Positions 17,701-58,452 of a stretch of 64,000 bases of DNA are shown here, in pieces. The notes beneath the pieces are model-generated. The model was not told the origin of the DNA. It did not search any database and saw only the letters and a program-made list of their open reading frames with translations. Within the stretch, counting starts at the first letter, position 1, and each line of letters opens with the position of its first letter. Source of the stretch: Marsupella aquatica (Eukaryota; Plantae; Marchantiophyta); the NCBI GenBank assembly GCA_973895155.1, contig OZ316899.1, positions 15,093,974-15,157,973 on the forward strand. The letters are read 5' to 3'. The position numbers were made by a program, and so were the translations under genes.

Positions 17701-17734
17701 ATTACTCACAGTGCAAAAATTGTATTCATGACTC

Positions 17735-20170: not shown

Positions 20171-20219
20171 AAAGTATTTTACATTGATATGAAAAAATGG
20201 AAAGTCAGACAATTTGATC

Positions 20220-23356: not shown

Positions 23357-23668
23357 AGTGGTGGACTTTCTCACCCAGCGCCCTCACCAATCTTGGCACC
23401 CATGCCTAAGTGTGATGCCTAGCCAGGAATCACTAGGCCAGTTTAAATGATAAAATAAGGAGTAAACCCTGGAAACACATTAGTATAGTAGCAAAAAGAT
23501 GGAAAATATAAACAATTAAGGGTGGCTATGGAACCCAAGCCGAGGCCGGAAGTAAGAATGCCGGGGGAGGGAACACAATTAGGGTTAGGGCGCGCTAGGT
23601 GCCAGCGGCTATGGGTAACTAACGGGAAGGAAGACCAGTCAGGGAGGGGTAAGGATCGATCGCAAGGA

Positions 23669-26600
23669 ATGGTGGCTCATTTGCAAGCACGAACTAAGCA
23701 GACGACTACGGGAGGCCAACTACTGTCCGTTGCTCAGGCAAGCACTTGATGTGGAAGCAGATACCGACAATCAACTCAAGAAGGGTATGAGCAACGTCAA
23801 TCAAGCTGCTCATTTTTGGGGATGCCTGTTAGAACGGGCAACTGAGTACATTGGGACCTACAAGGACGAAGAATCGGAGAGAGCCGCTCGAGAATGGGAG
23901 GAGCTCGCTCGACTGTGGGAGCTGCAGAAGTCTGCCTTCTTAGCAGGAGAACTCATCACGGCTGAATTCCTGTGGACGCCTACTGCCGACAAAGTTGACG
24001 ATCTTCTATTTTGTGAGAACAGAATAGTCGGCATCCGGGAAGCCATCAACCGCTGCAACGACATACACTGGGAGTTGAAGGGTAACACGGAGGGGTGGAC
24101 GAAGGCAACCGTGCTAGGAGAAACATCCACGGCAGCCGCTATGAAGAGGAAAGGGAACATCAATGAAGAGACCACCCTTGCGAAGAGAATGAGGTCGGCG
24201 GCACCAAGGAAGCCAGTCGAGCAAGGGGCATAGCGACGGAGACAGGAAATAGGTAAACAAGAATTTTTTTTTCTGTTTTTAATATGCTGTTACCAGGAAA
24301 AATGACAATTTAAAAATGTCTCCTAAAACATGTTATTTCCAAAAAAAATGAACAATGCAACATTTTTGGCTAGCTTTGGGCGCTACTATTAGCAGCGCCG
24401 GGCGCTAGCAAAAACAATCTGGTCGACCGAAAAATAATAATATTTTTTCTCTCAAAAAAATAAATTCAAAAATAAATTTCAAAAAATATTCAAAAAAATA
24501 TTCCACCAATTTTCCTGTTACCAGTTTTTTTTCCAGTTACCAGTTTCTGTTATTAAATCCTGTTTGTTTGCTGTCTTTTGTAAACACCTCGAGCAAGGGA
24601 GCAGGAGGCAAGAAGAAGCCAAAGAAGAGGAGGTCGACCCCATCAATGCCGTTCCGACAAGAGATGACACCTGGAAAGGCTGGGCGACGACCCTCCCCGA
24701 GGAAGTGCAGTTACACTTTGCACGTGAAGAGGAAGCATGCTTTACGGCTATGCAGACTCGGAAGTACCAAGGCTTCATGGCCGGATCCGGCTTGGAAGCC
24801 TTTGTGAAGTTACCATGGCTGAAGCCGGAGGTGCCGGATTCAGACTTATTAGAATTTGTGGGATCCTAGAGCCCGAGTCCAATTCCACAAGGGTGTATGG
24901 GAAGGATTTCTATCTCACTCCCCGAGTGATTGCCGAAGCATTTGGCTTGTCGATGGGCAGTAAGACCAAAGTTGATACCAGGAAGACCTTGCCTGACAAG
25001 GAGTTCCGGTCATTCCTAGGGCCATCAACGAAGAATGGCTTCTTCTGGAACACCTGCACCAACCTGCACATTGGGGAGATGATTGATTTCTTGCGGGTAA
25101 CCATGCATTGCAACTTGCCGAGGCCAGAGATCGGCAAGGCACAGGTTTACTTGGCGGAGAGGCCAGACCCCAACCGGGACTACAACAAATTCTTCCTCAC
25201 CCAATTGAAGAAAATCTTGAAGGAGGAACAGCAGGTGATTGGCAAGGGAAGCGTGTCCCGACTTGGCTATCATATGCCGCTGTTGTGCCGGTATGCCCGA
25301 AGTCAGATATTCGCCCTGGTACTTCCCCTGCAGGCAAGAGCACCAGAGGAGGTTCCGGAACAAAGGCCGGCAACAGAGAAACCAACCCAGCCCGACAGTC
25401 CTACAATCGAGCAGGTGTTTAGGCCAAGGAAGGAAGACTTGCCGATGCAGCAACCAGGCATGCAGAATCTGCTGAAATTGCTGGAGAAGGAAAGGAGAAT
25501 GGCAACGGCAATGGGACCGGTACAGAATACTGCTCCCGAACTCGGCCTAAGCCGACTTACTAGGGAAAACCCCTTTACCGGGGCCAAGGAGAGAAGGGCC
25601 AAGGAGAGAAGGAGGCATAAAACAGATGGCACAAGAGTTTCAGGAGCAACTCAGGGAGGAAGAGAAGGCAGCCTTGGCTAGGGAGAAAGATTTACCAGGG
25701 GGAGAATGGCCAGAGCACATCAAGCGGCTTGCAAAAAAACAAAGCAGCCCTCCAGCCACGATAGAAAAAATCCGCAAGGCGGCTTGGGAACAAAGGCCGC
25801 GATGGTTGATGCTGATGACTTCTACCCACTCTGCCTATGCTAAAGAAAGAGCCATGGAGTACGGGGAGATGTGTGGGGAACTTGCGCTCAGCATCTTTGG
25901 GGAGGAGTTGGAGCAAGGACCCTTTTTCCAGAGGGAGATGTTGGAGAAGTGCCAATTAGAAAAGCGATGGGTTTGGAGAGAAGCAAGAGAAGTCATCCGT
26001 CGGCTTAGGGCAAGGGAAGCCGAGGTAGAAGACCTGAAGGCGGACAAGAAAGCCCAAGATGAGCTGCGGATTAAGCGGCATGAGCTAAACATCATGCAGG
26101 GGCAATTGGATACCGCGCAGTCTGAAAATCAGATTATCAAGGATAAACTGACTCGGACCCAAGGAGAGTTGGCCAATGCGATCAAGGAGAGGGAGAAGTG
26201 GAAGCGAGAGCTGAGGGACGCAGAGGAGGCCCACATAGCAGCCAACAACCGGGCCATGGCGGAGACCCAGAGAAGGGAGAGGGCGTTGAAGGGGGAGCTC
26301 GAGGATATCCGCGGAGCCCTTGAGCAAAAGGAGGCCAAGTTAGGGAAATCTTATCAGGCGATTATTGTGCTACAACAGGAGCTTGCATCCCTGACAACCA
26401 GCTTCAAGGCCGACCTCCGTGAGAAGATGACCAGCTCGACCAGACTTATGCCAAGATGAATAAAATGGAGTCTGAGGTTGTAATGGAGCTCGACAAGGAG
26501 CTAAGAGCAACCCAGGAGGAGAGGGCTACCTTAAAAAAGGAGCTAGAGGAAGCCTAGGGAGAGTTGGAGGAAGCCCAGAAGGAGCTGGAGGAGGCGTGCA

Positions 26601-27237
26601 AGGACCTGGACAAATTGCAGGAGGAGTTGGAGGAAAGCACGCGGAAGATGGAGAACTTACAGCGGCGAGCCGACAACCAAACGGAGCGGCTGAAGAAATA
26701 GGCCGTAGTATTTAAGTGCTTGGCTTCCTCAGGTCCAACTCCAATTGGGGCAACCAAGTTGCTAGGAGTAGTACTGGCCAAAGGACAAGCTGAGACACTC
26801 GCACCGGTGCCGGAGGTAAGTGGCAAGGGGAAGGGACCAGCTGCCAAAACAGGGAAGAAGAAGCAAAAACCTTATGGGTCAGGGAATAACACGGCTTCTC
26901 AAGCCGTCATGACCAAGGAGGTAAACCCGACACCAACCTCAGGCAGGGTCACGGCAGAGGATCCAACTCTCCTACAAGACGGGATGGCAAGGGCGAAGCC
27001 GGAATGCTCAGTGATGAGGCCGGTGTACCAAATCCCCCACTAGAGCAGGTCGGGGAAGCCGTAGCCATATTGGAGGCCGTGGCCGATGCTGAGGCCAAAG
27101 CCGAGGGTGGACCCAGTCAGGCCAATGGAGAGTTGACTCGGTCCGGAGCAGGTAATCTGTCAGAGGACGGACCTACGATAGTGGCTATGGAGGAAGTGTT
27201 GGGGGCGTCCATTGAGGATCAGCCACCACTACCATGA
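23669..27237 (+). pseudogene. LTR-encoded protein of family D: PMD/Athila-ORF-like domain followed by long coiled coil
   Basis: ORF pieces 23730-24233 and 24564-24869 join in frame (KPVEQGSRRQEE) after MITE removal. GLEAFVKLPW...EF...TPRVIAEAFGL...; E/K/R-rich heptads at 25626-26700. A few frameshifts and stops. Confidence 0.7.
24226..24590. mobile_element. Mutator-like MITE
   Basis: Flanked by direct repeat TCGAGCAAGGG (24217-24227, 24589-24599; exact 9-bp TSD phase ambiguous). Homologous to 38232-38530 and 50705-51021. Confidence 0.85.
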
Positions 27238-30200
27238 CGGTGGTGGAGGGCCGCTCCTTTTAAGGAGGGCGGACGTGGAGGGAGGAGGCGCGAGTGGGCA
27301 GGGCGGGCTCAGATCTCCAAGTTTAGAATTAGGATCAGGACCAAGGGGCGGCCCTGACACTTAGCTTAGTGGGATTGTGGATCCGCTGGTAAGAGCAACA
27401 CTTGTGCTCTTGCCTCACTGTACATAGGTAGATTACAGTTAGGTAGATTACAGTAGGGTAGATTAGGTTTACGTTGCAAGGAATTAGGCGGATCCACTAC
27501 CAGGATAAGTACCTGTGCAGTGGGGAGTTGAGGGCCTTCTTCCTTAGCAAGTTTTTAGTGCACCAACAGGGCTGGGATCAAGTAGTTAAAGAAGCTCTCG
27601 GTTAGTTATGTTGTGACCCTTGTGTATATTCATGTTTCCTCATACCTAAGAGATGAATAGAGTTGGCCTCACGGCTTAGTTCGCAGATCTTGTGTATGAG
27701 AAGTACTGTTTGTATGGCAAGTGCATGGTATAACTCAGTCAGAAGGAGTCATTTTGCTATTTGTGTGTCGCATTAACTTGTTTGAAGATTGCCCACATCA
27801 ACCAAGAAGAGAGTAAGCAAGGTAGTAAGCGTTGGATGTGTCGAGCTGAGAGAGGTCTTAGCGGCTTACCCAAGCCAGTTGGGGATCATTCCGGCGGCGG
27901 AATCCAAACATACCTAAAGGAAGACCAGGAGAGGAGGACAAGGGAAAACATAGAAGAGGCTGGCTACGTATCTCATGACCCGATGAAGGATTTGTGCAGT
28001 ATATGTGTGTAAAATGTTAGTAGAAGGAAGTTGGCAGCGTCCCATGCCGCTAAGCCACAAAACCGGCCTCACCAAGAGCGAAACCTGCGGGAATCGGCTT
28101 GTGCAGGGGGGTTTCTTGGGTTCAGGGAGCCATGGGACGCACCACACTAAGTGCCCTTGGTGCGCAAACACCTCCACGGAATACCTCAAGCAAGCAACTT
28201 GATGCCCTTGCACCGCCTGCGTCCCCTCCCATACAAAGTCGCACTTGCTCTCTAACACAACCGCTACTCAACGGTCCTCGCTGTTTGCACAAGCAATCAA
28301 GCATCTTGATAAGTAACCCCTCAGGATCTAGATCTCCTCAGTCTAGCATCCTAACTCAAGCTCAATAGACATTGGTAAGTAGGTCAGCGATAGGTCCTCC
28401 TGATGCCATAAGCCGGAACCAGAACCAATATTCATTGTTTGTCCAGAATAGCACCCGCAAACCTTGAGAACCTATGGCTCCCCAAGACCTAGCTGAGCTC
28501 AGGAGGATGTAGCCCTTCTCAAGAAATTTCCAACGCACCTAACAAGTCCCCCAACGGACTTCTCGTTGGGAAGTTATCGTCATTTTTGTTTGACAGTTTC
28601 CCTTAGTGTCGCGACCATCGCGGCTCACGACTTCTGCTTGCCCTTAGACCCCAGGGAGACACCACTCCCATCATATATGCTTCTGGAGACCTGTCACCAC
28701 CAAACCAACTTTGGTCCCCAAAATTTTGGCCCCCAACCAGGACCCTATCCCGCATGTCTGGGCGCGCCACCAATTGGTAACGCCCATAACTTCTTAGTTA
28801 GGCGTCTACAAGCGGAGTGCCTTAGTCCATTATGATTGGGCCAACCCGGTGCTCATGCCTAGGCCCTCAGATCACATTGGTGCTCGGGGCCCTGATCGGC
28901 CAAACCCGGATTGAGCCATAACTCGTGCCCCAAACGTCCGTTGCCCATGGCTACTCAACGGTCCACACTATCTGCACAAGCAACCAAGCACCTCGGTAAG
29001 TAACCCCTTTGGATCTAGAACTCACCAAGTCTAGCATCCTAACTCAAGCTCAATAGACGTTGGTAAATAGGTCAGCGATAGGTCCTCCCGATGCCATAAG
29101 CCGGAACCAGAACCCACATCCACTGTCCGTCCAAGACAGCTCCTTCCTTGGGCGCGGCCTGGGTTCCCCCTTGTACCTATCCATCACCAACTGACCGCCC
29201 TGACCTCAGAACATGCTCATGACCCAAATAACATAGCTTGTCCTAAAGCTTGTCCCAAACTTGTCTCAACACGCCGAAACCAGAACGTCCCCAACTCTAA
29301 CAACCGCTCCCGGTTTGCCCCACTGATGGTCTAGGGACCAAGCGCCCTTGGGACTCAGCCTCCATGCCTACTTGGCCTTACTTCCCCAACACAAGCTCCC
29401 TTGGGAGGCTGAACGCGGCTTGGCTGCTGTTCGGCAGGATTTGGCAAGCGAGCGAGCTAACACCCGCAAACCACGAGAACCCATGGAACCCACAGACCCA
29501 TCTGAGCTCAGGACGGCGTAGCTCTCCTCAAGAGCTTTCCAACGCACCCAAGAGTCCTCCAACAGACTTCCCGTTGGGGAGATATCACCATTTCCGTTTG
29601 GCGGTTTCCCTTAGTGTCGCGACCGCCGCAGCTCACGACTTCAGCTCAACCTTAGCCCCTAGGGAGACACCACTCCCCTCATATGCTTCTGGAGACCTGC
29701 CACCCCCGAACCAGCTTTGGTCCCTAAACATTTGGCCCCTAACCCGGATCCCATCGCGCATAATGGGCGCGCCACCAACTGGCAACGCCCATAACTTTCT
29801 TGATAGGCATCCGCAAGCGGAGTGCCTTAGCCCGCTGTGACCGGGCCGACCCAGTGCTCATGCCTAGGCCCTCAGATCTGATCGCCGCTCGGGGCCCCAG
29901 ACCGGCCCAACCTGGATCGAGCCACAACTTGCGCCCCAAGCGTCCGTTGCCAATGGCGTCAACTCCATTGGCCTTGGGCCCAAGAGGAGCTCACTCCCAA
30001 GTCCTCAGAACTCAAAGTCCATCCAACGATCCGGACGGCCATCCTTGAGCCTGGCCCATTTCCCCTTGACCCGACCAGCCATAGGCTAGTCCAAGTCCTT
30101 AGTGTGTGTCCCCAGCTTGGCCCCTTGCCTCGCCAGTGCCACGTCTCATTGCCCATAAGTCTCCCCATGCTAAGTCCTCCCCGGATGGCCTATCCGGGCC

Positions 30201-35840: not shown

Positions 35841-35968
35841 CCCAATGACCAAATTTGCCCGCAGTCGACCCGCCGGGCAAGTTGAAGCACTAAGTCCCCG
35901 CACAAATCTGCTAAGATTTTTGGATTTTGACTTAGCACAACCCTGGCCCAGTGTCTATGCCAGCAATC

Positions 35969-35980
35969 GCTCTGATACCA
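35969..35980 (-). promoter_or_regulatory. Primer binding site, tRNA-iMet
   Basis: TGGTATCAGAGC lies 2 nt after the LTR end CCACT. Confidence 0.9.
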
Positions 35981-38231
35981 CAAGTGGTGGACCTCGCCAC
36001 CCAGCGCCCTCGCCAATCCCAGCAATTGCGTCTAAGTACCCTTGGTGTCCGAATGCCTCCACGGAATACCTCGAGCAAGCACCCAAGTGCATCTTGCACC
36101 ACCAGCGGCCCCTCCCATATGAAGCCGCACTTGCTCACCTACACTACCGCTACTCAACGATCCTCACTCTCTGCACAAGTAACCAAGCACCTCGGTAAGT
36201 AACCCCTTAGGATCTAGAACTCACCAAGTATAGATCCTAACTCAAGCTCAACAGATGTTGGTAAATAGGTCAGTGATAGGTCCTCCCGACGCCATAAGCC
36301 GGAACCAGAACCCACGCCCACTGTTTGTCCAAAACAACTCCTTCCTTGGGCGCGGCCCGGGTTCCCCCTTGTACCTATCCATCACCTACTGACCGCCCTG
36401 ACCCCAGGACATGCTCATGGCCCAAATAGCGTAGCTTGTCCCAAAGCTTGTCCTAAGCTTGTCCCAACACGCCGGGACCAGAACGGCCCCGACTCTAGCA
36501 CCCGCTCCTGGTTTGCCCCACTGGTGGTCTAGGGTCCAAGCACCCTTGGGACTCAGCCTCCACACCTACTTGACCTTGCCTCCCCAACGCAAGCTCCCTT
36601 GGGAGATTGAACGCAGCTTGGCTGCTGTTCGGCAGGATTTGGCATGCGGGCGAGCTAACACCCACAAACCACAAGAACCCACGGCACCCCCAGACCCAGT
36701 TGAGCTCAGGAGGACATATCCCTCCTCAAGAGCTTTCCAACGCACCCAAGAAGTCCTCCAACGGACTTTGTGTTGGGAAGATATCGCCATTTCCGTTTGG
36801 CGGTTTCCCTTAGTGTCGCGACTGGGAGCCTTTCGCAACTGGGAGCGCGGTTTCCGGGCTTGGACCATAAGGGAGCTCGGCGTCGGAGTCAGCGACGCCG
36901 GAGCTAAGTGTTAAGGTAGTCGAGTTTCGCAACTGTGGAGTTCCTAAGGCCGAGTCTGAAGGCTTTGGTTTTGAGTTTCTTGAAGAGGAAGTGGTCCAGG
37001 GGCATGGCTCGAGTTCAGACTCAGACTTAGAGGAAATCTGATGGATTGGAGCAGACCGGAGGCTACTCAGGTTTGGGGGAGGATGTCGTGCCAAAACATT
37101 TCTGCTCAAGAATGGCTTTTATAGGGGCTGATGGGCGAGGCATCCCTATTCAGTTGCGTGCATGCTGACTCTGAAAGGTTGCTTGGTTGGATGGGTTGAG
37201 GTTTGATGTTTGGGTGACTCGTCGTCACTAGGTTTGGTGTTTGGGTGACTCACTAGGCTTGGAGTTTGGATGAGCCTTGCTGATGGCAGCTGGCTCAGGC
37301 TGGAAGGTTGGTTTTGGATGCTATTTAAGCCTTGAGCTTCGGCTCATTGGGGTTCTCTGTTGGCTATTGAGTTCTGTTATGTTCCAATCTGTGAGTTCCG
37401 CTGCATTCTTCGGAATTTGGCTGTTGTGCGACAATTTTGGTGTTCTGTGCGAGTGTTGGATCCGGTGTTGGTTCTCAAGCTTGGAGTCTCGTTGGTCCAG
37501 GCCCGAGTTTCTTGTGAGCTAGGTTAAAACTAGTCGAGTAGCTAGTCAAGTTTTGGAGTTTTGTGAGCTAAGGAGGAGAGTTTTTCCATCAAATTTTGAG
37601 TAGATAGCCACTAGAGGAGTTGAGCTTGACAAGTTACAGGTAGCGGCCCACCGTAGGACCAGCTACCAAACTCTTGCGAGCAAGCTTACTCAAGGGCACC
37701 CATTGTAACCATTGAGAGAATAGTAAAAAAAATAAAGGAGTGGGAATTCACTCCAAAAAGTGCTTGTCGTCTGTCCCAGTCGCACCCAGAAACGCGCAAT
37801 TTACCCAAGGAGCCCCTAACTTCTAGTCCTTGCGACAATGTGATCAACCAGGTCAACGCGATTGAAGTCGGGTTGGCAGAGGCCAGACCCGAGCCAGAGC
37901 CTATAGTGGTAGAGGATATCCCGCCACCCCCCATGGCTGTGCAGGATAACCGCCCAGCCCCAGTGAACCCAGCCCCCTCGACCAACTTACCTCAAGGCCT
38001 GGATGTCTCCACTCCAACCCGCGCGCGAGCTAAGGTCTGTCCTTGCCCGAATCCGGAGGGGCATAGTCTAGACCACCCGGAACTCTTTTCACCGGGCACG
38101 TGTTTGAATGGATTGTTGGGAGACTTCTCTCAACAAATCGCACGGGGTACCGAGGAGTACATGGCACGGAAGGTGGCCTACTTCTTCAACCAGGAGTTGG
38201 TTGCGGCCGTGAAGGCAGGGCATGCGCAAGC

Positions 38232-38530
38232 GAGGTATTTACAAACGACAACAAACAGCAAACAGTAACAACAAACAAAAATTGGTAACAGGAAACAGAA
38301 ACTGTTAACAGGAAAATGAGCAATAATTTTGTTTGAAATTTTAAAAAAAATGGAAAAACATATTTTTGGCCAAAAATATTTTTTTGCTAGCGCCCAAAGC
38401 TAGCCAAAAAATGTATTTATTTATTTATTTCTGGAAAGTGTGACTTTTTACAAAATATTTTTTTATTGTCATTTTCCTCGTAACAGTAACTTTTTGTTGT
38501 TTCCTGTTTTTTGTCAGGGGTGCCATACCC
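38232..38530. mobile_element. Mutator-like MITE
   Basis: Degenerate 9-bp TSD TGCGCAAGC/TGCACAGGC; the empty site TGCGCAGGC is visible in the homologous segment at ~51732-51740 (minus strand). Confidence 0.9.
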
Positions 38531-39238
38531 TGCACAGGCTAAGCTTGCGTAGAGAATAGAGCGGTATCGGGTTGAGTCTGCCCACCTGAAGGACAAAGTG
38601 GCAGCCCTGGAGACTGAGCTCCAACTGCTGTGGCCTCAGGTAACGGCCACTGAGGATCAGGTTGCCGAAGCTAGAGCCCAGGCATCCTTTGCAGAGCAAG
38701 CCAGAGCCGGGAAGGACGTTGAGATCGCACGGCTCCAGACCCAGATTGACGGTTTGAAGGGACAAGTTGTCATCTAGCAAAAGAATCTGGAGGAGGCCAA
38801 CGCTCGGGCCCAGCGAGACGCAGCCGAGATAGACACCCTGAAGGTGGAAGTGGCACAACTTCAAGGAGAAGCCACAAAGCAGGCCCAGTTGGCGGATAAG
38901 CTGACGAGCGACACCCAGCAACTAGAGGAGGCATGCCAAGAAGCCGCGGCGGAGACGGATGTGGCGAAGCGAGAGAACAAATCTCTGCTGGACCAGGTCC
39001 AGCTACTCAAGCAGGACGCCGACAGAATAAGGAGGCAGCGGGATAGTCGCTCCCACTCGGGCGGCTCTGGCAAGCGTGCCAAGCATTAGCGGCAGAGTAG
39101 GATTAAAATAGAGTTAGGGGTAGCTAAATCTGGCTATAGGGACAAGCGCCTGCCCTAGTTAAGGCGGCGCTGTCACACTGTCCAGCCTGCGTAGATTAGA
39201 ATCTTCTAATAAGACAAGTTGTTTTATGGCCTGACAGC

Positions 39239-42200
39239 GGGCCTGATCTCCGTGACAGGAAACAGTCAACAGGAAAAATCATAACAGGAGTTTTTGTGCT
39301 CACAACAAAAAAATTATCATTTTCAAGAGCCAAAAATATATTTTCTATGATATTCATGATCCAGGCTATCGCTTTTTGTCTTAAAAAAACCCTACTTTAT
39401 CATAATGTGATAAGTTTACTAGTGTCGAGCGCTAGCCAAAATACAATGATACGTTTTCATATTAGTTGCAAGGGTTATAATTAGCAAATTACATCACATG
39501 TTGGGCAAACAAAATGTGCATGGTTTATTGGAAAATATGTAATTTGTATTTTTTCAGTGGATACTTAGCATTTTGGCAAGGGTTATCATTAACACCCCCT
39601 CCCGACGCTAGCCAAAATACCATCATAGTCTTTACATAGTGACAAAATTTACAATTAATATACAACAAATTCCTATGTTTATTGAACGCTTACAAAAATG
39701 CAATATACTTCTCCTATAAACCAAGTGCGTATTTCTTGCATTTGGCCAAATCTGATCCTCTTTAAATTCTAAAGAGGAGACTTAAGTGTACATCATCATC
39801 AAGATTATTGAAAGAGTGCTTATGTGAGGGGCACAGTCTTGGCAAAAAAATCCTCATTTGGAAGATTTTTTTAATCTAAATTTTCATAATTAAATCAAAC
39901 CTTCAATATAGGAAATCTCATGGATTTTTTTGTAATTTCTTGAACATAAAACAATGTATGGATATAATTTCACATGGGTAACAAAAATTTATGAACCCAT
40001 GTGACGCATATACACACAAATGGGATCAAATTATAAAACCAAGTGTAATTTGAATCTTTGTTTTGTAGGAAAATCTGGGACAATATTAATTTGACTAGTG
40101 CTTACATTGTCTTTTCCTAACCATAAACATCATTATATTTTTCAAGTTGTTGATTTTTATATATGTGGGTTGTTGTTATTTTCATAAAATTTATTAGAAT
40201 TACTTCTAAATTATTCTCATAAGAAGGTGAGGTGCTTAAGAAAATGGGAAAAGTTTTGGGCTACAATAGGATTAGAGTTTGACGCTCTCTAGTGACCCCA
40301 AAATATCCAGTATAGAACAAGGAAAATATGATAGTAATACCATACTCTACTATACAAATTGGCATAATTTGATGTGTTTAAAGGTCATGAAGATTAAACT
40401 CTTGGATTAAATCTAGGAATAAATCCCATAATAGCTCCAGATGCAAAAGAAATTGAGACAATTTGAATATATTTATATGATATAATCCCTAATTTAGTAC
40501 CTAATTGCTATCCCAATAGTCCTAAAATCTTGTGCAGAATGTATAATAGGGCCATGCGCTATCATAAATCAAATTTATTTGACGTATTGATTGATAAAAG
40601 TATTAGGTGCTATCATCAAATGACACATTTATGTGTAGAAACATCCATCATTTTTTAAAGAAAATTTGGCAGAAGAGTTAATTACAAGAAATAATAAACA
40701 TAAACCCATAAAACAAATTTAATAAAAAAGATTAAAAAATATACAAATGTTACTAGCATCGGGCGCTGGCAATATCCTACTTGGCTTGATCCCCTCTTAG
40801 AATGATATTATTTTAAGAATTTTTATACAAAAATTAAGCTAAAATTAGTATAAAACATTTAAAAATGTTACTAGCGCCGAGAGCTAGTAATATTCAAGTC
40901 ACCAAGACACTCCAAAATGACACTATATGAATGCATGTTTACAAAAAATAAGTAAGCAAAGAATAATAAAAATGATAAAATATTACTAGCACCAAGAGCT
41001 AGTAATGTCACACCCACCTAGACCCTCCAAAATGAGAGTATTTTGAGCATGTTACATAAAACAACAGGCAAAAAGGTAATAAAAATGAAGGAATATTGCC
41101 AGCGCCGGGAGCTAGTAATTAACATCACACAAGTTTGGATCCTCCAAAATGACACTATTTTGAGTGTCTTTATGAGAAAACTTAAGCAAAAAAGGTTGTA
41201 AAAATGAATTAACATTACTAGCGCCGGGAGCTAGTAATGTCACACTCACTTGGACCCTTTAAAATAACAGCATATTGAGTGTATTTATGAGAAAAAATTT
41301 AGAAAATTGGGCTATAAAAATAAATTAACATTACTAGCACCGGGAGCTAGTAATGTCACACTCGCTTGGACCCTTTAAAATAACATCATATTTAGTGTAT
41401 TTATGAGAAAAAATTTAGAAAATTGGGCTATAAAAATAAATTAACATTACTAGCGCCAGGAGCTAGTAATGTCACAATTGCTTGGACCCTCCATAATAGC
41501 ACCATTTTGAGAAATTTACAAGAGAAATTTTACTCAAAAAATATAGAAAAACAAATTAACATTACTAGCGCCAAAAGCTAGTAATGTGACTTTGGCCCAA
41601 ACCCTCTAGAAAAACATTTTTTTGAGTCTGTGAGCTTTAATTATTTACTGATATATCACCTATTTCACTAGTAATATTACCGTTTTATCTCTTGTATTTG
41701 CTACTGTTGTTAAATACACCAAAGGATATTTTAGAAGGTCATGCAATTTTGCAAGTAATAAAGAAATATCTATGTAAATGAGACCTCACCAAAGAGGACT
41801 CTTTGTTGGCATTGAGTGCTACTATGGTAATATGAACAAAAATGACTATAGCCTAAGGATATATTTTGATAAGCGCCAGGCGCTGCTATAAATTTTGGTC
41901 AAAAGCAATGGCTCTAATTATCAAATTTATTAGATTAGTTTGTGGTGCTACTATATTATATCATCATTTGTAATGTTTTAATGGTTATATTATCACTAAT
42001 ATTATCCAATTGTCACGGCTGCTGACCTTGTTACTAGTAGAAAAGAACATAGCATCCTCTAATGGTCTAAGGCGGTTCAATCAAAATTTACAATATGTCA
42101 AACTCCTCATCATTGGTTAGAGCATTCAAATGACCAGAGTGTATTGCATTTGATAGCAAGAGTATATCTTTTTGCTCACATCACTCTACGTGAGGATGTT

Positions 42201-43041
42201 AACCTTTGATCAATCCACACATTTACAATCTTCTAGGTAGTACTTTGGAAGATGCATGGAACCCTTGATATGATGTGTTCCTTTATCGATAGTTTGTTAC
42301 TACTAGGTCTACGTCCAAATCAAAGTACGATTCAATATAATTCAAGTTAGTTTGAGCATGACAATTAGGGTGTCTAAAGGGGAATAAACTTTTTTGTTAT
42401 AATTTTTATATAGTTTTGATGTTGTGCACAATAGTTTTGAGCGTGAATATTGGTATATACATAGATGAACTAACAGTTTCTTTCGTCATAATGTTCTATA
42501 CAACAATCTGTTGCCTCTTGGCGGACCACCATATATGGAGTGTCTATGCTTAGCAAAGGGATGAAGACTCAATCAGCAAGACAATCTCATCTCCCGTCTA
42601 ATCTATAGGGGAAGAGCAAGTTCACTGATTATTCTTAGATGTCAATGGAGATGCACTAGAGTCGGCTTGCGCTAAATGAGGGATCAGCTTGAGAGAGCTA
42701 ACATTCCAGATCCAAACACTCAAGAATTGCAAATACTTACTTGGTTACGATTTATATGTACTTCTATTGCTCTTGTGATGATTTTTGTTGGAAGCATTCT
42801 TGAGCTATTATCAAATGATGCCTTCATGTGTAGAAAATCTTTGGCACTAGTAAAGATTTATGTCTATAATAATTGTATATGTTACATATATTACAATTGC
42901 GCAGTTCAAATTGCAGTGTAATTTTGGTCCCTAAAGTGGGAATTTTCTTTTGGCATTGCGCACAAAACTCCTGTTATCTTTGACCATTTTTGCTGTTATG
43001 ATAATTCCTGTTTACTATTTCCTGTCACGGGGAAAAACCTC
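39239..43041. mobile_element. Non-autonomous Mutator-like element (3.8 kb, AT-rich)
   Basis: Perfect 9-bp TSD CCTGACAGC (39230-39238, 43042-43050); TIRs containing CCGTGACAGGAAA. Confidence 0.92.
40745..41600. repeat. ~116-bp tandem array, ~8 units, each with hairpin ATTACTAGC-N7-GCTAGTAAT
   Basis: Cores at ~40750, 40868, 40983, 41096, 41215, 41331, 41447 and 41562. Confidence 0.9.
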
Positions 43042-43969
43042 CCTGACAGCCAGCTTAGTTAGGATCTTAGTTAGTGAATATTCGGGCACGAGGGCACTCT
43101 GGTCCACAACCCTTGGTATTTAGTGCACCCCTTGGTAGAGGCAGGGGGTTTTGAGTCTCAGAGTTGGACATCCGCGGTATGTGCGGTGAGTCCCGACCTC
43201 TGTGAGTGGAAGAGTACCAAGGGGAGGGGGTATGACTAAGCTCGCTGGGCGAGTGCGGAGCCGAGCTCCGTTGTAGTGTACGCCCCTCGGCCTTGGACCT
43301 GTTCATTCAAGAGCTGTCGAGTCAACCAAGTGTAAGTGTATGTTGACTTGTGTAGTAAAATCCTTTCCCATTATTTCCTTCGTGTAAACCGAGATCGTGT
43401 GCTTGTGTGTGTGTGCATGTATGAATCTTGTGTATGGGTGCCAATGCTTGGCCAAACGCACTGCCCAAGCCGTGCACGGGGTGCAGGTTGCAGATGAGTG
43501 GTTGCGAGCCCGGGTTGAGTGCCCGTGTCATCGGAACCAGATCAAAGGCGCACAAAGGCTTAGAAGCCCGTAAGCTAGGGTCGATCCCGCTATCAACTAA
43601 GGTATGTTCCGGCGGTGAAACACAAATCATACCTAGGAAGTGTACGTAAGTAACAGTAGACGCACTTAGTGCTAGATTACGGGAGTTAGGTGCTTTCCGT
43701 GTGTCCCTCCCTGCCCAAACCCTCATACTAACAAAGGATGTGCCTGTCTAAGCCAAAGCTTGGGTTAAGGCCCAGGCTGACGATGTGACATAGCCTTTGT
43801 TTTTGGTGCTAGATGGAGGGGGCACTCTACGTGTAGTAGAGGGGAGACATGTGCGGGTGCACCTGGGCAGAGTACACCAGGCCCCAGTTAGTTACTAACC
43901 ATCACATTTATATGAGTAGATGCTCGTCACTCATTCTCAAGCAGCTTACTTGAGGAGATTGACTAGCAA

Positions 43970-46900
43970 ATGAGAGAGTGCAACCACAACAAGCTCCAAA
44001 TCTTCAGGCTCGGAGGACTCACAATCGCCTCGACGGATGAACATACCATCGGGACCTTCAGGGTCTGGTCCAGCCGGTCCTGCTCTGGCCCCTACTGCAC
44101 CACCGCCAATGCCACCACCGCCACCAATACCTATGGCGGTAGCCCCTCCGGCTGTAGCCCGCGCTCAGTATCACAGCGATCACGGTTTCATTATCAACCT
44201 TTCAAAGGACATCATGGGGACGATCTGGATGAATGGTTGGATGAGTTTGAAGCCACTGCTAAGGCCAACGGAGAAGATGCCATTAAGCTGACCGTTCTCC
44301 CTAGAGTAATGCGGGGAGAAGCTCGTCCATGGTACAACTCGCTGCCGCCCAGGATCACATGGCCACAATTCCCAACCTGCGTTGCTACAAGAGTTTCGTG
44401 CCATTGGAGCGGAGCAACATTCCTTATTACAGATCAGTCAGCTTTGCATGGGAAAGAAGGAGTCCTTGCAAAAATTTATTCAAAAGTTTCAGAAACTTGC
44501 TGCCAAGATCCGGCCCAGGCCAAGTGATGCGCTCCAGCTTACGTGGTTTCTCCACGGTTTGCCCACAAATATGCAATTTTGGGTGTGCCAAAATAACCCA
44601 ATTTCAATGCAAGCAGCCATAGCGTGCGCCGAAACATACAGGGAGTTCACCTATAACTCCTAGCGAAGCCAATGGGCACGCCATAAGAAGAGCAAGTACG
44701 AGACCTTCAGTGACAGTGACTCCAAATCTGACAACGAGAAGAAGAAGAAGCATAAGAAGAAGAAGAAACATCATTCAACCTCGTCCAGTTTGGAGACAGG
44801 GTCTAGTTTGGACTCGACTTTGACCAGTGGATCCTCCACCTCCAGCTCATCGGGAAGCAATTCGGAGAGCAAGAACCGAAGCAAGAAGAAGAAGCGGCAT
44901 GTTAAGGAGGGGAAAATCAAACCCCGTGTTTGAAGAACGATACCCAATCCAAAAGCTGCCGAAGCAGACAAGCTCAATGAAATCACGGATTGTCTCAAAG
45001 CACTGTTAGTACATCTTGCAGAAAAGCCTGTGGAGAAGAAGAAGCCATCCGAGACCCGAGCACATGCGTGGTCTTCCAAGTGCTTCCAATCAGGGCATGT
45101 GGTGCAAGAATGCCCAAGATGGAAGAATCGAGTCCATCAGGTAGAATTGGATGATGTTGACAGCCCGGGACCAGAACCGGAGTCCACGGAGTATTTCTTC
45201 GAAGACCCTTCTGATTCTGTGTATCAGATTTCCACGGTGGGTCTGCGTAATTTAGCGGGTAGAATTGCATATCCCTATCCAAACAATGGCAGGAGTTTCC
45301 AGGTTATCAGTAACCCAAGCATTCCTCCTAAGCCAGGGATTTGGCGATCCCCGGTTTGTTACAACTATGAGAAGCCAGACCACTTTGCAAGGGAATGCAC
45401 CAAACCAAGATGGCAGGGAGATGGCTGAGGCACGCCACTATGTCAAGTTTGCAAAACGGAAGGTTATTTCACGGCTAACTGTCCATTGGCAATAGCCCCT
45501 TTAGCAAACACAGCTAGACCGGCCTAGGGTGGACCAGCCACGAGCGATGCAATCGTCCAAATGATTGTTGTAGAATGGCAAGATGACAACACCAAGTGGG
45601 TAAATCTGGTGGATGTGGTGGAGCACCCTAATCCATTAGATGAGGCCGAGTGCTACCGTGTGTCAACAAGAGCCAAACGGAGGGAGGAGAAACAGGAGGA
45701 GAAACGCCGGAAAAAGCGAGATACTATGCCGGTGCAGCCAGCGATAGACATACCCCGGAGGAGGATGACGACTACCGTCGGGATGACCCAAAGCTATTTT
45801 ATCCCCGCATTGAAGAATTGGTAAAGAAACAGTTGGAGGCCTACAAAGCACGGGAATACCAGAAGGCGATCGATAAGGACATCAAAGTAGCCGAGGCCGC
45901 CCAACGATGGGAGCAAGAGAAGAGGGAGGAGGAAGCCAAGCAGCAGCCAAAGGAAGAGAAGAAGGAGGACTACAATATTAGGAAAGACATGAAGAGTTGC
46001 CCGGTTACAGCAATGGTAGGGCAATTGCTGCAGAATAATCCTCAGTACCAACAACAACTGAGGGAGTTGCTCACGGGTCGGCAATGGAGACGACTACCAT
46101 GGGTTGGGATCGTGGACTGTAATATGATCTGTGAGGACCTAGGAGCGTCGGACATCTCGATTGAGATTAACAATTGTACTATCAAGATGGTTCTCATGGA
46201 CGGGGGAGCAGGAGTCAATATCATGACTGAGGAAACATCGGTCAAGTTTGGGTACCTCACGTATCAACCCACTGTCTGAGCTATCAGATTAGCAAATGGG
46301 GCGAGGGTCCTTCCCTTGGACACGCTTACCAAGGTGCTCACTCTCGTAGGAGGGGTGGAGTTCTATCTCAACTTCCTAGTCATGAGGCCGGTTTGACCAT
46401 CCTCTTATCCGGTCCTTCTGGGCAGGCCGTGGCTATATGGAGGTTGCGTAGTCACGGATTGGGGAAAGAAGGAGCTGCAGTTTGGGACACCCACAGTTCG
46501 GACACCCACGATACGGGTATCGTGGGCAATGGACAATTATCAGGGTGAAACCCCACAGGGACCCGAGGAATATGATTCGGAGACCTCGGAAGAAGAAAAG
46601 CTCAACATGATAGAGCTCATCTCGTCCCTTTCCGAGGAAGATGTTTTCAGAGTGGAAGCAATACGAGAAACCCATCTCATGAACTACCCAAAAGAGGATA
46701 CATGCAACATCACCCCGAGTTCCTTTGGTGCCTCAGTGAAGGTACAACCCATCCAAGTCAACAGCACGGAAAACACGGAGAGCATAGCTACAACAAAGCA
46801 GGGAGCGGACGTCACCCTTACGAGGGCCGACTCCCCTAGTCGCGGGCCTACCAGAGTATTCACCAAAGCCGAGATTCCAACACCCAAGCACAAGAAATGA

Positions 46901-49160
46901 GTATCTTGGGATCCCTCTATTCCGCTAGAAGAAGAAGTAGTCTCGACCCCAGAACCGATCCCGACCTCACCGATGTATGGAGGAGTTTGCTTAGCGGAGC
47001 TAGATGCTAGCCTCGACCCTAGCCTGTGGAACCAGGTGGAGGTCATAAGGAAAGAACACTACAAGAAGTACACCATTGGGATGGATAAGACTTTCAACTT
47101 AGGTCACGCCTTAATTGGCAAGGCAGAGAAATCCATCCAATCACTACTTAAGGAGTATGAAGACGTGTTTGCATGGAGCCATCATGACCTGACCGGAGTC
47201 TCCCCCGAGTTAGGAGAACATACGATTGATTTGAACTTAGGGGCACACGCTGTACGACAGCGCCAAAGTCGCATGAACCCGCGATATTCCATCTTGGTAA
47301 AAGAAGAGATTGATTGTCTCCTGGCCGCGGATATCATCTACCCGATGATGGCTAGTGATTGGGTGTTCCCTATTGTCATTGTGCCAAAGAAGGGAGGTAC
47401 GGATGGGAAACCTAAGATCCGCATCTGTCGGGACTATTGTAAGCTGAACGATGCTACCCAAAAAGACCACTACCCGTTACCATTCACGGATACGGTTCTG
47501 GATATGGTAGCCCAAAACAAAATTTATACATCCCTTGACGGATAGTCGGGCTATAATCAAATTTGGATCCGCCTCTCAGATCAGCTCAAAACCACGTTCA
47601 CCACGGAGTGGGGGACATTCGCATTTTGGAAAATGTCGTTTGGGTTGTGTAACGCCCCGGCCATGTTCCAACAACTCATGATGAATATCTTCCACGATTT
47701 CCTACGGGAATTTCTGGAAATATTTATCAATGACTTTGCCATATTTGGGACTTTCGCCATGCACCCCGAACATCTACGGCATACGCTACAACAATGCCGA
47801 GAGGTTAATCTCAAGCTACATCCTCCGAAATGTTTTTTTGGGGTAGAGGAGGGGGTTTTACTCGGGCATGGTGTGTCCAAACGGGGTATCAAGGTGGACT
47901 AGAAGAAGGTTGCAGCCTGGATGGCGGTCGTGTTCCCCGTAGATCGTGTTCAAAAGGCTGTACGATCCTTTTTGGGCTGCATAGGGTATTATCGCCGGTT
48001 CATTAAAGATTTTGCTAAAATTGCGCTCCCCCTCACAGAGATGATGAAGAAAGATGTTGTAATTGAGGAGACGCCCCGAAGACGGATTGCTTTTGAGGAA
48101 ATTTGTAGGCGACTCATCACAGCACCCATCATGGTTACCCTGGATTGGAATAAAGAATTCCACGTATACATTGATGTTTCCGGTTTTTGCATCGGGTCCG
48201 TATTGAGCCAGCTCAATGAGGACGGTTGTGACCACCCCATCTATTTTTCCAGTTGTCAGTTATTCGTGGGGGAGAAGAATTACTCCCCCACTGACCAAGA
48301 AGCTCTCAGTATTATCTACTCATGCAAGAAGTTCCGACACTATCTGCTCGGATACAAAGTCATCTTCCACACGGATCATGATAGTTTGAAGTATATGGTA
48401 AACAAAGCAGATGTTATGGGACGGATAGCCCGGTGGGTGTTACTTCTCCAGGAATTCAATTACGAAGTCCGGGTTTGGCCAGGAAGGGCACACCTCAATG
48501 CCAATTTCTTTTCAAGACTGGACGGTGTACCTGTCGATCATCCTATTAATGATACTTTTCTGGATGAGGAGTTATTCCACGTAGGGGCAGGAATGCCTAT
48601 GTGGTACGGCTTGATCATTACCTTCCTCTTAACATTGAGATGTACAACGCTTTATCAAGGGATGCAATCTATGCCAACGGGCTGGTGCCCCAAGGAGAGC
48701 CCACAACCACCCCTCACTTCTGTACATCCACTAGCACCATTTGAGAAGTGGGGCATTGATTACATCGGGCCTTTCACTCCAGTTACCCAAAGACGCAGAT
48801 TTAGGTACATCTTGCTAGCCATAGATTACTCCACCAAATGGGTAGAAGCTCGGACTACGGTGAAAGACGACGTCGCCGGAAAGCAGCAAGCAGCTTCCAA
48901 GAAGGAGCACGACAAGGGACTATGGAAGGTAGATGTCGTGACGGGCGACCTGGTCCTTCTGTACGACAATAGGTACATGCAATTTCCGGGGAAGCTTCAT
49001 ACTCGCTGGCTGGGCCCGTTCCTGGTCAATTAAATCTACCCAAACAGATCTCTTGACCTCGCGACGTACGCCGACGATTTACTTCCCACGCGAGTTAGTT
49101 ACGATCGTGTAAAGAAGTACCATCACCAGGACGATGACGCCGACAGTGATGTTTGTGAGG
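43970..49160 (+). pseudogene. gag-pol of family B (gag, zinc knuckles, PR, RT, RNaseH, internally deleted INT)
   Basis: DEWLDEFEATAKAN, MDGGAGVNIM, KDHYPLPF, SFGLCNAP, FINDF (mutated xxDD), DVSGFCIGSVL, PFEKWGIDYIGP, GKLHTRWLGPF. Confidence 0.92.
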
Positions 49161-49599
49161 ACGCTTCACAATTAAGCAGGGAGCTATGTGATGTTGCCAG
49201 TGTGGCGGTTAATGATTGATTCGGCCTAGCTTGTGCTTAGCATGCGCATTAGGGGCATCATAGGCCGTAGTTATTAGCATAACGACACTAAGTAGGTAGT
49301 ACTTATGACTAGAGAATCATTAGTTAATAAGGGGCATTTACATTTGGGATGGCGGCAGAGCGCCATTCGTACTCCCGGATTACGAGCATGTAAGGGGGCC
49401 CCCTCGGGTCCGTATAACAAATTTTCAGAGGCGGCCACTGACACGCTCTGAACCGGACCCACGGAGTGGCTGGTACACTGCAAGCGTGAAAGGCTCGGCC
49501 TATAGGAAGGGAGGAGGGGCCAGTCGACCGATGAGCCCTCAGAGTATAAAAGGAGGGCCATTCTCTCGCATTGCACCCACACTCCATTCCGCACGCCAG

Positions 49600-52258
49600 C
49601 TTTGATCTCAGCCGCTTCATCCCTCCTTAGTCGCCCACCGTCACTCCTGGATGTCTGTCACGATATTGTCCAGTTTGGCCCTTCAATTTTGGCTGCAATT
49701 CCTATCCGTGGGAATTCACTTAGCCAAGTCCTTAGCCAAAGTCAACCCACGTCGATACGGGACCGAACGGGCTTACGAGAGAGCCATCTGCTTAGCCGGC
49801 CATAATCACTATAATGGCAACTTTGACCTCCCATTCCAGAGTGAGCTTTTCCAAGCCGACAAAATCAGCGAGTACTTCTTTGTTGATGAGAAGTACGTCG
49901 GCTTTCGGGAAGCGCTCCTTTGGCTTCCAGACAAGGTTTACCATCTCCCAGGCACGATAGACTTGCAGCCGCACCACTATGACCATATCCCTGCCCGGGT
50001 TCAAGCCTCCATAGACTGTCAGTTTGGCCCGGCCCAAACAAGCAAGACTCCTATCTTAACTTCACTCGGCTTCCCCAAAGACTTCCTGAATCTAATGGCG
50101 CCTCCTCCAGCTACAACCGGCGCCAACTCATCGGTATCCGCGCCAACACCGCCCTGGCCTCAGCCAAGCCATCTCCACCACCGGTCGTACCACCTCTCCG
50201 AGTGCAATCTGTGGTGAATTCGGTGAACATTAGCTCCGAAGATGAGGAGGCTCACCCTACCCTGAACCGGCGGCCGCGGGGTGCAAATCAGCCTGCGCCA
50301 AGCAACCTAGCGCCACTTCAACAAGCATGAGGGGATAACACGATGACTATAGGGGCCCTCGCACCAATCCTTACGGCGGTAGCGCTACCGCCGCCTAATA
50401 GAGAGGATGGGGAAATGTCCCCCTCTTCAAGTCATTTCGAGAATCAGTCCCGGGGTAGGAAGAGAAAAGAACCCGCAACTGTATCTGGGCTGCCTTTAGC
50501 CACGGTTGCGGTGGCCAAGCTGACCATGCATCACATGGGGGAGAATGTCCACAAGAACATCCTCCACCCCAAGCGTATGAGCACCTCTCCTCTCTCCCTT
50601 GGAATGGAAGTAGGTACTACGGGCAGGATATGACGGAGTTCATTCAGAACTTTGACGAGGCCCACCAACAAACCCAGGCGCACGGGAGAGTGATGTGTCT
50701 CAATGGGTTTGACATGCGTGACAGTAAATAGGTTTACTGGTACCAGCAAACCTATTTACTGTTACCAGAAAAATGACAATGTAAAAATATTTCCTAAAAA
50801 ATCATATTTTGCAAAAAACAATTTGTCGACAACATTTTTTGGCTAGCTTTCGGCGCTAGCAAAAAAATATTTTTGGCAACAAAATAATAATAAACATTTT
50901 CACAAAAAAAAATTCCAAAAAAAAATTCCAAAAAAATTCCAAAAAAATTACCACTCATTTTCCTGTTACCAGTTTCTGTTTCCTGTTACTGTTTGCTGTT
51001 TGCTGTTGTTTGTAAATACCCCGTCTCAATGAGGCACGTCTGAAAATGATTTTCGACCTACCCGAAGGAAATAATTGGGTATAATCGTGGGCTCTCGGGG
51101 GCAAGGGAGCCAAATATCAGTCCTCTAGCTTCCCGGCCGAGGGGGAAGTGGACAACGGATTCTGGATGAGGACATGCCTCATCCCGGAGGTAGCGGAACG
51201 ACTGGAGTTCCAGTAGTATGCCCTCCACATGATGGAACCACGAAGCCAAATATCTGCCACCCAAGTCATACAAGTTGAGAACTATCGGCCTAGGAAGTGG
51301 GCGTCCTTCTTCGTCAAGAAGTTCCACGAGGAGATGGAGCGGAGAAGGAAGACTTTATACCTTGGAGGAAAGGCATACTTCGCTAGCCACATTGAGATCA
51401 TCATCGAGTGGTACACCCATTTTGACCGCCGAAGCCTCCCTCGTATCAACAAGCCCAAATTGACCCATCAAAGTGGATATTTCCGGCTCAGGAGAGGTGA
51501 TCGGCTTGTCCCTTCAAACCGTCAATCTGGGTCCGGAGCCGTGCAATCTTGGCGTCCTTCCCGGCTTCGGCTTGCTCTACAAAGGATGCCCGGGCTCTAG
51601 CTTTGGCAACCTGATCCTTAGTGGCCGTTGTCTGAGGCCGTAGTAGTTGGAGCTCAATCTCCAGGGCTGCCACTTCGTCCTTCAGGTGGGCAGACTCAAC
51701 TCGATACCGCTCTATTCTCTATGCAGCCTCAGCCTGCGCATGCCCTGCCTTCACGGCCACAACTAACTCCTGGTTGAAGAAGTAGGCCACCTTTTGTGCC
51801 ATGTACTCCCCGGTATTCCATGCAATTTGTTGACAGAAGTCTCCCAGCAATCCATTCAAAACGTGCCTGGTGAAAAGAGTATTGGGTGGTCCAGACTATG
51901 CCCCTCTGGATTTGGGCAAGGATAGACCTTAGCCCGTGCGGGAGTTGGAGTGGAGACATCCAGGCCTTGAGGTAAGTCAGTCAAGGGGGCTGGGTTCATT
52001 GGGGCTGGGCGATTCTCTTGCACAGTCATGGGGGTGGCGGGATCTCCTCTGCCACTATAGGCTCAGGCTTGGTTCTGGCCTCTCCCAACCCGGCTTCAAT
52101 CGTGTTGACCCGGTTGATCGCGTCTAGGGTTGCGATAACCGCGTCTAGGGTTGCGATAACCGCGTCTAGGGTCGCGATAACCGCGTCTACGGGTACGTTT
52201 GGTGGGGCGGCAGTGGCTGGTTGCGGGGTTGGGGTAGCAGGGCTTGCGGCTGCTAGAC
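49600..52258 (+). pseudogene. LTR-located accessory ORF remnants of family B (PMD-like + coiled coil), partly inverted
   Basis: 51229 ORF PRSQISATQVIQVENYRPRKWASFF...GGKAYFASH aligns with D PRPEIGKAQVYLAERPDPNRDYNKFF...GSVSRLGYH. TATA-like TATAAAAG at ~49545. Confidence 0.6.
50705..51021. mobile_element. Mutator-like MITE
   Basis: 9-bp TSD TGTCTCAAT/CGTCTCAAT (50696-50704, 51022-51030); GGG...CCC ends. Confidence 0.9.
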
Positions 52259-52606
52259 TTTGGCCAAACGCACTGCCCGAGCCGTGCAGGGGTGCAGGTT
52301 GCGGATGAGTGGTTGCAATCCCGGGTTGAGTGCCCGTATCATCGGAACTAGATCAAAGGCGGACAGCACAAAGGCTTAGAAGCCCGTAAGCCGGGGTCGA
52401 TCTTGCTATCAACTAAGGTATGTTCCGGCGATGGAACACAAATCATACCTAGGAAGTGTACGTAAGTAACAATAGACGCGCTTAGCGCTAGATTACGGGA
52501 GTTAGGTGCATTCCGTGCATCCCTCCCTGCCCAAACCCTCATACTAACAAAGGATGTGCCTGTCTAAGCCAAAGCTCGGGTTAAGGCCCGGGCTGACAAT
52601 GTGACA

Positions 52607-55288: not shown

Positions 55289-55859
55289 TGATACCATGGT
55301 TATAAATAAGGAAATTAAAAAGTACAAAAATTTAAAAAAATTCAACTTTTAGTGGTTAACGGCGTATACTTTGACCGGAAAAGACCATAACAAACTACTT
55401 TGCAGTATCAAATCCGGAAATATCCGGATAGCACCTTTTTTGTGGAACTCTTAAGTAACAACACCGTTGAGCCATGCGAGTAGGCGTGGGAGAATGAATA
55501 TTAAAACCATAAGTCTGACATCCGACCGGAGACCGGAAGTTGGCAACCGAGTTCTTAAGACCGCGCTAGACCAAGCATTCCTCACACCACCGAATTGCTG
55601 CAGAAATCTTTTGCGAGGAATCATAGGAGAGTTTAGAGCCAGACAAGGCTGCCGTTTCGAGGCAATAGTTGAAAGGAAGTTGGTTACGGGGGAAGTGGAT
55701 GATCATTCGATTGAGAGGCGATGTTTGCAACTTGATTGAGATTTCCAAATTTGGGAATTTCGGATTTTGGAAGGATTTTAATTTGGTTCTTTCTCTCCAT
55801 CTTCTCATTATGGTGAAGAGAAAGGATCCGGATTTTGCCCCGAACAAATCCGGAATTCG

Positions 55860-57456: not shown

Positions 57457-58452
57457 ATTAGTTGTTTTAGTTAGTTAGTTAGCATTTTCGGATCCGACTA
57501 GGATCTAAATCCGGATTTAGTAGTAGAATCGGAAATCAAAATCCGGATTTTGCCTTACATCCATTTCCGGATTTTCCTTTGTTCTCATTTCCGGATTTTT
57601 ATTGACAGTTAATTTTTCTTCCACGAAAACTGGAAATGACACTTTGTGACTTTTGGGATCCTTCCTTTGTGTATCTTTGGAGGAACACAGATTCATTTTT
57701 TTTTAGTTCTCAGTTTCTATTGGAAGCATAGAAGCTCCTCCTCAGGTGCTCCTGTTGAGCCTTGACCTGTTGTGAGTAGAACTACAGACTCCTTCTCCTG
57801 TTGAGAAGTTAATACTTAGAAATTTTACCATCATACTTTGAAGTTGGATTTTGATTTGAATTACTCATATGGATTCTAGTTAGCATTGAACTCCTGCTGT
57901 TTCAGTAGTCGAAATGGAATGTTTCCTTTCCCATGAGTAATTATCTAAATTTGATTGAGAAGATATCAATTTCACAATCTAGAAATCTGTGTGTGAGAAG
58001 ATATCAATTCAAGCATTCTAGTACCGTCACATTTGTTGACCAGAAAGAATTCTTGGTTTGATAGCTAGATCTCCATGTCAATTTCTAGTTAATGTTTGAT
58101 GTCTATTTTAATTCGACCATGTTATGAGCTCTGTTGTGTTCTGAATCTTAAAAATCCAGAATCCTGTTGATTTGCTGGGGATCGTCATTTTCCATCATCT
58201 CTTCTCATGAATCAATTGATAAGACATTCTTACTAGTCCTTTTCCATGCCTTTCTTTAATTATTAGTTTTTGTGCATTGATTACTATCAATCCTCAGGAG
58301 AGAGAACTCCTTGGTGAGGTTATGCCAAATCAACATCTTATTTGTTCTTTTTAGTACCAAATTGCTTTTCATTCACTCTTACAGGGAAAGAATTCAGGTC
58401 TTTAGAGGTTAAAGTGTTCTTTAACGGTCTGACCACTCTACCACACGCTTTT

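Follow-up and report, generated by a model that had tools for sequence, protein, structure and literature searches.

A probable solo long terminal repeat carrying a protein-coding reading frame in the liverwort Marsupella aquatica

The DNA analyzed here, referred to as the window, is a stretch of 64,000 nucleotides from Marsupella aquatica (assembly GCA_973895155.1, contig OZ316899.1, positions 15,093,974 to 15,157,973). Within it, a long insert containing the remains of a protein-coding gene interrupts a long terminal repeat (LTR) of a repeat family that we call family A (Table 1). Aligned separately, both flanks of the insert match sister copies of the host LTR that carry no interruption (16225-17700 and 35983-36822) and in which CTAAG occurs once at the site. 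The two ends of the insert, TGTGATG and CACCACA, form an inverted match in 6/7 positions. One sister copy reads CTAAGTG at the host site, so that a 7-bp duplication can also be read; the 5-bp duplication appears preferable because it leaves the better inverted ends. The features of a solo LTR that we found are TG...CA ends with a short inverted match, a target-site duplication in the 4-6 bp range, and an empty site in the sister copies. The right end was further confirmed as an insertion end, as a contig from sequencing run X2 joins 28146 directly to a point inside the ORF (open reading frame) of another copy. When the insert was compared with itself, no terminal direct repeat emerged; the best local alignment of its 5' against its 3' part scored 25 and reflects a chance match of 22 nt. 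No gag, reverse transcriptase (RT), RNase H, or integrase family of Pfam matched any scanned frame piece, and no primer site was found within the insert. The boundaries, the rejoining host LTR, and the lack of both gag-pol and terminal direct repeats had all been proposed in the initial annotation of this DNA, and they stand.

A single reading path on the plus strand leads through the insert from 23528 or 23787 to 27237. The same annotation had assigned about 3.5 kb of one-strand coding sequence to this region; the single path holds, but the coding stretch shortens to ~3.1-3.3 kb (~1,030-1,110 codons) once a 372-bp insertion that had been overlooked is removed, and it is broken by four premature stops (24867, 25679, 26555, and 26699) and at least four frameshifts. 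This copy of the ORF is dead and unable to make protein. Contigs from other copies differ from the insert at the stop 26699 and at the frameshift sites near 24868 and 26423; therefore, these lesions are not family-wide. The pattern used found no TATA-like motif upstream of the insert's ORF, and no Rfam family was found in 24620-28300.

A relative of the insert, element C, lies further along the window and retains an internal gag-pol region. We found that C contains an ORF homologous to that of the insert (tblastn E 6.5e-6; pairwise score 90 against a shuffle maximum of 51, 0/500), which a profile made from seven database homologues alone also detected at E 6.5e-5. The integrase frame of C crosses a purine tract, after which, at 49187, comes TGTGATG, identical to the 5' 7-mer of the insert. 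The chance of a purine tract ahead of TGTGATG is 0.0065 per 100 nt, and the window has 11 further TGTGATG sites, one of which follows such a tract. Upstream of gag, a second copy of the C-terminal part of C's ORF continues into the LTR body; identity is 89-90% between the two ORF copies and 92% between the two LTR ends. In C, a pyrimidine-rich leader precedes the ORF, and a TATA-like motif occurs at 49545.

The third unit, element E, shows a comparable layout. On its left side, target homology ends at 55289 (the target DNA is unrelated), and TG, an ORF, CA at 58445, a primer site, and gag follow. The gag and RT of E are of the same type as those of C, and from their motifs we take both elements to be non-chromovirus and Athila-like. 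No extra (archaeal-type) RNase H was seen, by eye or with Pfam, in the scanned pieces of C, which has deletions, and of E, which is cut by the window end. The primer site of E is presumably of the tRNA-Asp type, and we take that of C to differ; the window contains no tRNA. Primer sites usually begin 0-4 nt from the LTR end, and the gaps to the primer-site-like motifs measure 13 nt in C (43791-43803) and 7 nt in E (58446-58452). In 3/3 non-chromovirus units seen in the window, an ORF occupies an LTR position.

Table 1. Features of the insert, its host LTR, and the neighboring elements C and E (positions in the window).
Feature	Position	Strand	Basis
Insert, likely solo long LTR, TGTGATG...CACCACA, 4,736 bp	23411..28146	+	flank alignments, end comparison
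Target-site duplication CTAAG, left	23406..23410	+	end comparison
Target-site duplication CTAAG, right	28147..28151	+	end comparison
Host LTR (family A), left piece, interrupted	23357..23410	-	alignment to sister copies
Host LTR (family A), right piece, interrupted	28147..28455	-	alignment to sister copies
ORF N-terminal part; start uncertain (ATG 23528 in another frame, or 23787)	23528..24216	+	weak homology to N-terminal part of C's ORF (score 56, shuffle maximum 50, 0/200)
Non-autonomous insertion resembling a Mutator-like element (MULE), AT-rich, including duplicated target; 372 bp between target copies	24217..24597	+	class inferred from duplication of at least 9 bp
Central conserved domain, unnamed family; stop and frameshift near 24867	24589..25339	+	homologue P0002 covers both pieces (E 2e-19, 3.4e-23)
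Long coiled-coil part of ORF	25743..26700	+	heptad score
ORF C-terminal part, low-complexity, with last stop	26701..27237	+	translation
Second purine tract and terminus-like motif directly after stop; likely relic of older short-LTR boundary	27258..27280	+	motif defined after seeing the sites, not an independent test
Non-coding LTR body, homologous to C's 808-bp terminal LTR body	27274..28146	+	score 294, shuffle maximum 252, 0/500
Element C, likely 5' long LTR remnant (ORF C-terminal part into LTR body; 5' end lost; holds 3.8-kb element with terminal inverted repeats and small insertion)	37842..43790	+	self-comparison, homology
Element C, internal region: primer-site-like motif 43804, gag-pol, purine tract 49172-49186 within integrase-frame end	43791..49186	+	Pfam, motif scans
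Element C, likely 3' long LTR: TGTGATG start, homologous ORF (partly inverted, deleted), TGTGACA end	49187..52606	+	homology, motifs
Element E, likely 5' long LTR, TG...CA, 3,156 bp, 477-codon frame 55812-57242 (2 internal stops); then primer site 58453, gag-pol	55290..58445	+	target homology end, motifs

An LTR that includes the gene is the simplest reading of the insert, C, and E together. Because of the junctions of the insert, the homology of its ORF and its LTR body to those of C, and the layouts of C and E, we consider the insert likely to be a solo LTR that bears a gene and derives from an Athila-like Ty3/gypsy lineage. A solo LTR with the gene inside it had been the central claim of the initial annotation; C and E, with the gene in LTR position, lend it support, but it is not proven, as no paired full-length copy of this exact family was seen, that is, one with two long LTRs, a primer site by 28146, and a purine tract by 23411. 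Several other observations weigh against it. Among 24 of the 2,221 loose ends of contigs, none lay at 28146, and no primer site was seen there. Over its first 120-400 bp, the insert shows no significant alignment with the sequence of C after 49187 (24-95/300 shuffles reach the score), and the truncation of C's 5' LTR makes a target duplication uncheckable. No homology was found between the ORFs of E and the insert (hhalign probability 0.2%) or between the 3' non-coding part of E and the insert; the ends of E and of the insert have nothing but TG/CA in common, and the window stops short of E's 3' LTR. Moreover, heavy rearrangement of the window makes odd junctions more likely a priori.

Another point on the opposing side comes from the non-coding 3' part of the insert. 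Here, an internal purine tract at 27258 is followed by a terminus-like motif, and this arrangement, like its counterpart in C, fits an ordinary short LTR. Immediately past the ORF, at 39159-39177, the family of C has a purine tract together with a sequence that matches the LTR end perfectly in inverted orientation. This 7-bp partner, TGTCACA at 39171, fits an ordinary LTR of 808 bp. The tract behind the gene would be either a relic or a second working priming site.

Public sequencing runs offer a view of the family beyond the window. Parts of the insert are present in 5/6 listed runs (shares 0.09-0.45, three studies), with small shares in X5 and X6, and no locus of the family was found in viral-contig, metagenome, or prokaryote-genome collections. 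In four runs (X1-X4), we computed contig depth over 24620-28300 in 30 bins; the ORF and the 3' end were covered in 30/30 bins in 4/4 runs, with 6,445-20,694 contigs per run. Summed depth exceeded that of single listed contigs by a factor of some thousand, which roughly indicates a high copy number. A ratio of terminal to ORF depth near 1 favors one unit, and a ratio of 3 favors additional short LTRs. Bearing in mind that these are contig depths and not copy numbers, terminal bins relative to all ORF bins reached 0.89, 1.55, and 1.52 in three runs (near 1 in X1), and relative to the conserved domain 0.63, 1.04, and 1.11. In X4 the two ratios were 3.07 and 1.97, as expected if short LTRs exist, which adds a further point against a family made up of long LTRs.

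The alternative that survives best is a mixed family in which both purine tracts are used, so that long gene-bearing LTRs coexist with short LTRs accompanied by an internal ORF. The insert would then still be a long solo LTR, and this explanation differs from ours on the family only, in that two gene copies per element would not be universal. Both tracts are present in the family of C, and depth rises from bin 27080-27202 to bin 27203-27325 in X2 and X4, which share one organism label; X1 and X3, which carry another, show no such rise. However, contig depth is not copy number, and no junctions at 27274 or 27291 occur among those listed. We regard a mixed family as unlikely, though worth keeping in view.

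We judge it improbable that the insert is a deletion derivative of an element with ordinary ~0.87-kb LTRs and a single internal ORF. A deletion starting a few bases in at most would have removed the 5' LTR and gag-pol of such an element; C and E, for their part, would appear gene-bearing only because each follows a truncated neighbor with which it shares an LTR. The tracts and terminus-like motifs behind the stop in both the insert and C would be expected on these terms, as would the homology of the 3' 0.87 kb to the 808-bp LTR body of C and the depth ratio of X4; internal extra ORFs are also the described norm (PMC7264820). This explanation, however, requires that the breakpoint fell no more than ~4 bp from the LTR start, that tandem arrangements arose twice, separately, within 64 kb, and that both the TG at the junction of E and the combination of purine tract and TGTGATG at the integrase end of C are due to chance. 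Tandem elements sharing an LTR are reported to be rare outside TRIMs (terminal-repeat retrotransposons in miniature), with 14 cases in rice, one in Arabidopsis, and two in Triticeae (PMC4668562). The depth ratio near 1 in X1 also speaks against it.

Finally, an independent cut-and-paste or integrase-type element (Ginger-like) or a non-autonomous cargo element would share the TG...CA ends, the short target duplication, and the absence of direct repeats, but it is largely refuted and highly improbable, given inverted ends of 7 bp only, no transposase or integrase match, a 3' part homologous to a gypsy LTR, and an ORF homologous to a gypsy-borne one.

If the insert is indeed a solo gene-bearing LTR, a shift between the two purine tracts would be a reasonably likely origin for it. 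Plus-strand priming would have moved to the tract at the integrase end, away from the one behind the accessory gene. Everything downstream, namely the gene, the older tract, and the older 0.8-kb LTR, would then have been copied to both ends of the element, creating one long LTR, and recombination between two such LTRs would have removed gag-pol and left the solo unit. An ORF in the U3 region of the LTR implies that the main LTR promoter lies downstream of it, and a solo copy would consequently need a second promoter. The initial annotation expected the gene's promoter to be left behind in a solo LTR, which is conceivable. The protein would likely be expressed from its own promoter near the 5' end of the LTR or from the 3' copy. 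A bolder extension, which we consider doubtful, is that an entire lineage of non-chromovirus gypsy elements shifted its plus-strand priming site upstream and thereby took its accessory gene into the LTR. Thousands of gene-bearing solo LTRs would have resulted and would still provide the protein in trans, each using its own promoter, such that the main route of removal by the host no longer disarms the element.

The encoded protein belongs to an unnamed family. A full HMMER search with its central part returned seven matches, of which five were genuine, unnamed, and present only in Logan assemblies; we discarded the other two, P0005 and P0008, because they are proteins with helicase-associated repeats. 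None of the five genuine homologues, including the intact P0002, matched a Pfam family (E up to 1). The first description of this ORF had combined a plant mobile domain (PMD) or Athila-ORF-like domain with a coiled coil. The coiled coil is retained (heptad score 0.72-1.0, with a weak ATG16 match at E 0.0065, below the cut-off), but the domain label is not, as PMD (PF10536), Athila ORF-1 (PF03078), and Transposase_28 (PF04195) gave no match in the window pieces or in 5/5 homologues at E 0.1-1. Word-index protein searches found no match for the central domain (proteins of 150-478 and 479-2000 residues) or for the ORF of E, and sequence searches of the PDB gave weak unrelated matches only. Two AlphaFold models had a mean pLDDT of 39.8 and 40.3 and were too poor for use. 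In a hydropathy scan of 12 pieces, two of them misframed and ignored, no transmembrane helix was predicted (19-residue maximum 1.09 in the ORF pieces of the insert and 1.44 in E). By analogy, the protein might tentatively be viewed as a soluble, oligomerizing accessory factor for the element's own cycle, acting for example on chromatin or silencing. The protein similarity between the ORFs of the insert and C persists without DNA similarity detectable by blastn, which points to past constraint on the ORF; the differences that separate a single dead copy from its family are, by construction, neutral.

The nearest known parallel is the sag gene of mouse mammary tumor virus (MMTV) and related betaretroviruses, a protein gene in U3; 490 of 527 sag contigs carry no other viral genes (PMC4667437). 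As with sag, the gene proposed here would lie inside the LTR, be duplicated in each element, and be preserved in solo LTRs. Unlike MMTV, an animal retrovirus, the carrier is a Ty3/gypsy retrotransposon with an unrelated protein, known here from sequence alone, and, leaving later insertions aside, the LTR measures 3.2-4.4 kb, with a gene of ~480-1,100 codons. Among plant elements, Athila (non-chromovirus, OTA) offers several likenesses (PMC6317226, PMC7264820): the 5-bp target duplication, which the insert shares, non-chromovirus-type gag and RT in C and E, with no extra RNase H seen in their scanned pieces, and a sense-oriented extra ORF after pol. By comparison, the duplication is 4 bp in Phygy and Selgy (PMC6317226 Additional file 5). 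The extra ORFs described for Athila are internal, however, whereas here pol runs into a purine tract and the ORF follows; the ORF-1 match is lacking, as is a transmembrane helix. The extra ORFs of Tat, Ogre, and Retand resemble ours in placing a globular domain ahead of a coiled coil (PMC4408406), and Ogre-type LTRs reach ~5 kb (PMC6317226), but those ORFs are internal, PMD and Transposase_28 go unmatched here even in P0002, and no extra RNase H was seen in C or E. A likeness by description exists to the 'Tat Z1/Z2' elements of non-seed plants, which are non-chromovirus gypsy elements lacking the archaeal-type RNase H (PMC13468544); the descriptive passages on them in that paper make no mention of an extra ORF or of LTR length.

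The accounts we cite (PMC7264820, PMC6317226, PMC4408406, PMC11963269; for further context on the subject, see PMC12885004 and PMC5408684) locate plant extra ORFs internally, and solo LTRs count as debris without coding content. Additional file 5 of REXdb (PMC6317226) lists forward extra ORFs on both the 5' and the 3' side in TatII and Tekay, in columns that may be shifted; these entries could hide LTR-borne ORFs. A full-text literature search, covering titles, abstract openings, and few subscription papers, yielded no description of a plant gypsy gene inside an LTR. If our interpretation is true, each insertion doubles a gene of 500-1,100 codons and solo-LTR formation retains it, and annotation would mistake such units for host genes or tandem elements. 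The relic purine tract would provide a testable route for LTR growth and gene capture, a process usually discussed only for retroviruses, and the abundance of the family in sequencing runs makes copy-level selection and expression tests feasible.

Further insertions and rearrangements were noted in and around these elements. The AT-rich MULE-like insertion in the insert's ORF has relatives at 38231-38531 and 50697-51031; 3/3 lie inside LTR-borne extra ORFs, at differing positions, and a target preference is possible. The 3.8-kb element in the LTR of C (39230-43050) is bounded by long terminal inverted repeats and a 9-bp target duplication; inside it lies a 116-bp tandem array, the unit of which resembles these small insertions. 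The 3' LTR of C contains an inversion and a deletion at 51505-52260 and a short tandem repeat at 52110-52190.

Family A, which hosts the insert, has LTR termini of the form AGT...ACT rather than TG...CA (16225-17700, 23357, 30274, and 35983-36934). For its solo copy (16225-17700) the duplication reads ATTAC, and the minus strand carries a primer site of the tRNA-Met type at 35966-35980. The segment 28147-30274 is a tandem join of two partial family-A LTR copies, and the element spanning 23357-36934 has flanks without a target duplication. Elsewhere in the window, an ORF at 283-1278 with a short Pfam match to N6_N4_Mtase (DNA methylase, E 5.9e-6) lies in a repeat to which the segment 18573-21154 is related in inverted orientation, a copia-type reverse transcriptase occupies 4254-5342 on the plus strand, and a protein kinase fragment is found at 10793-11536 on the minus strand.

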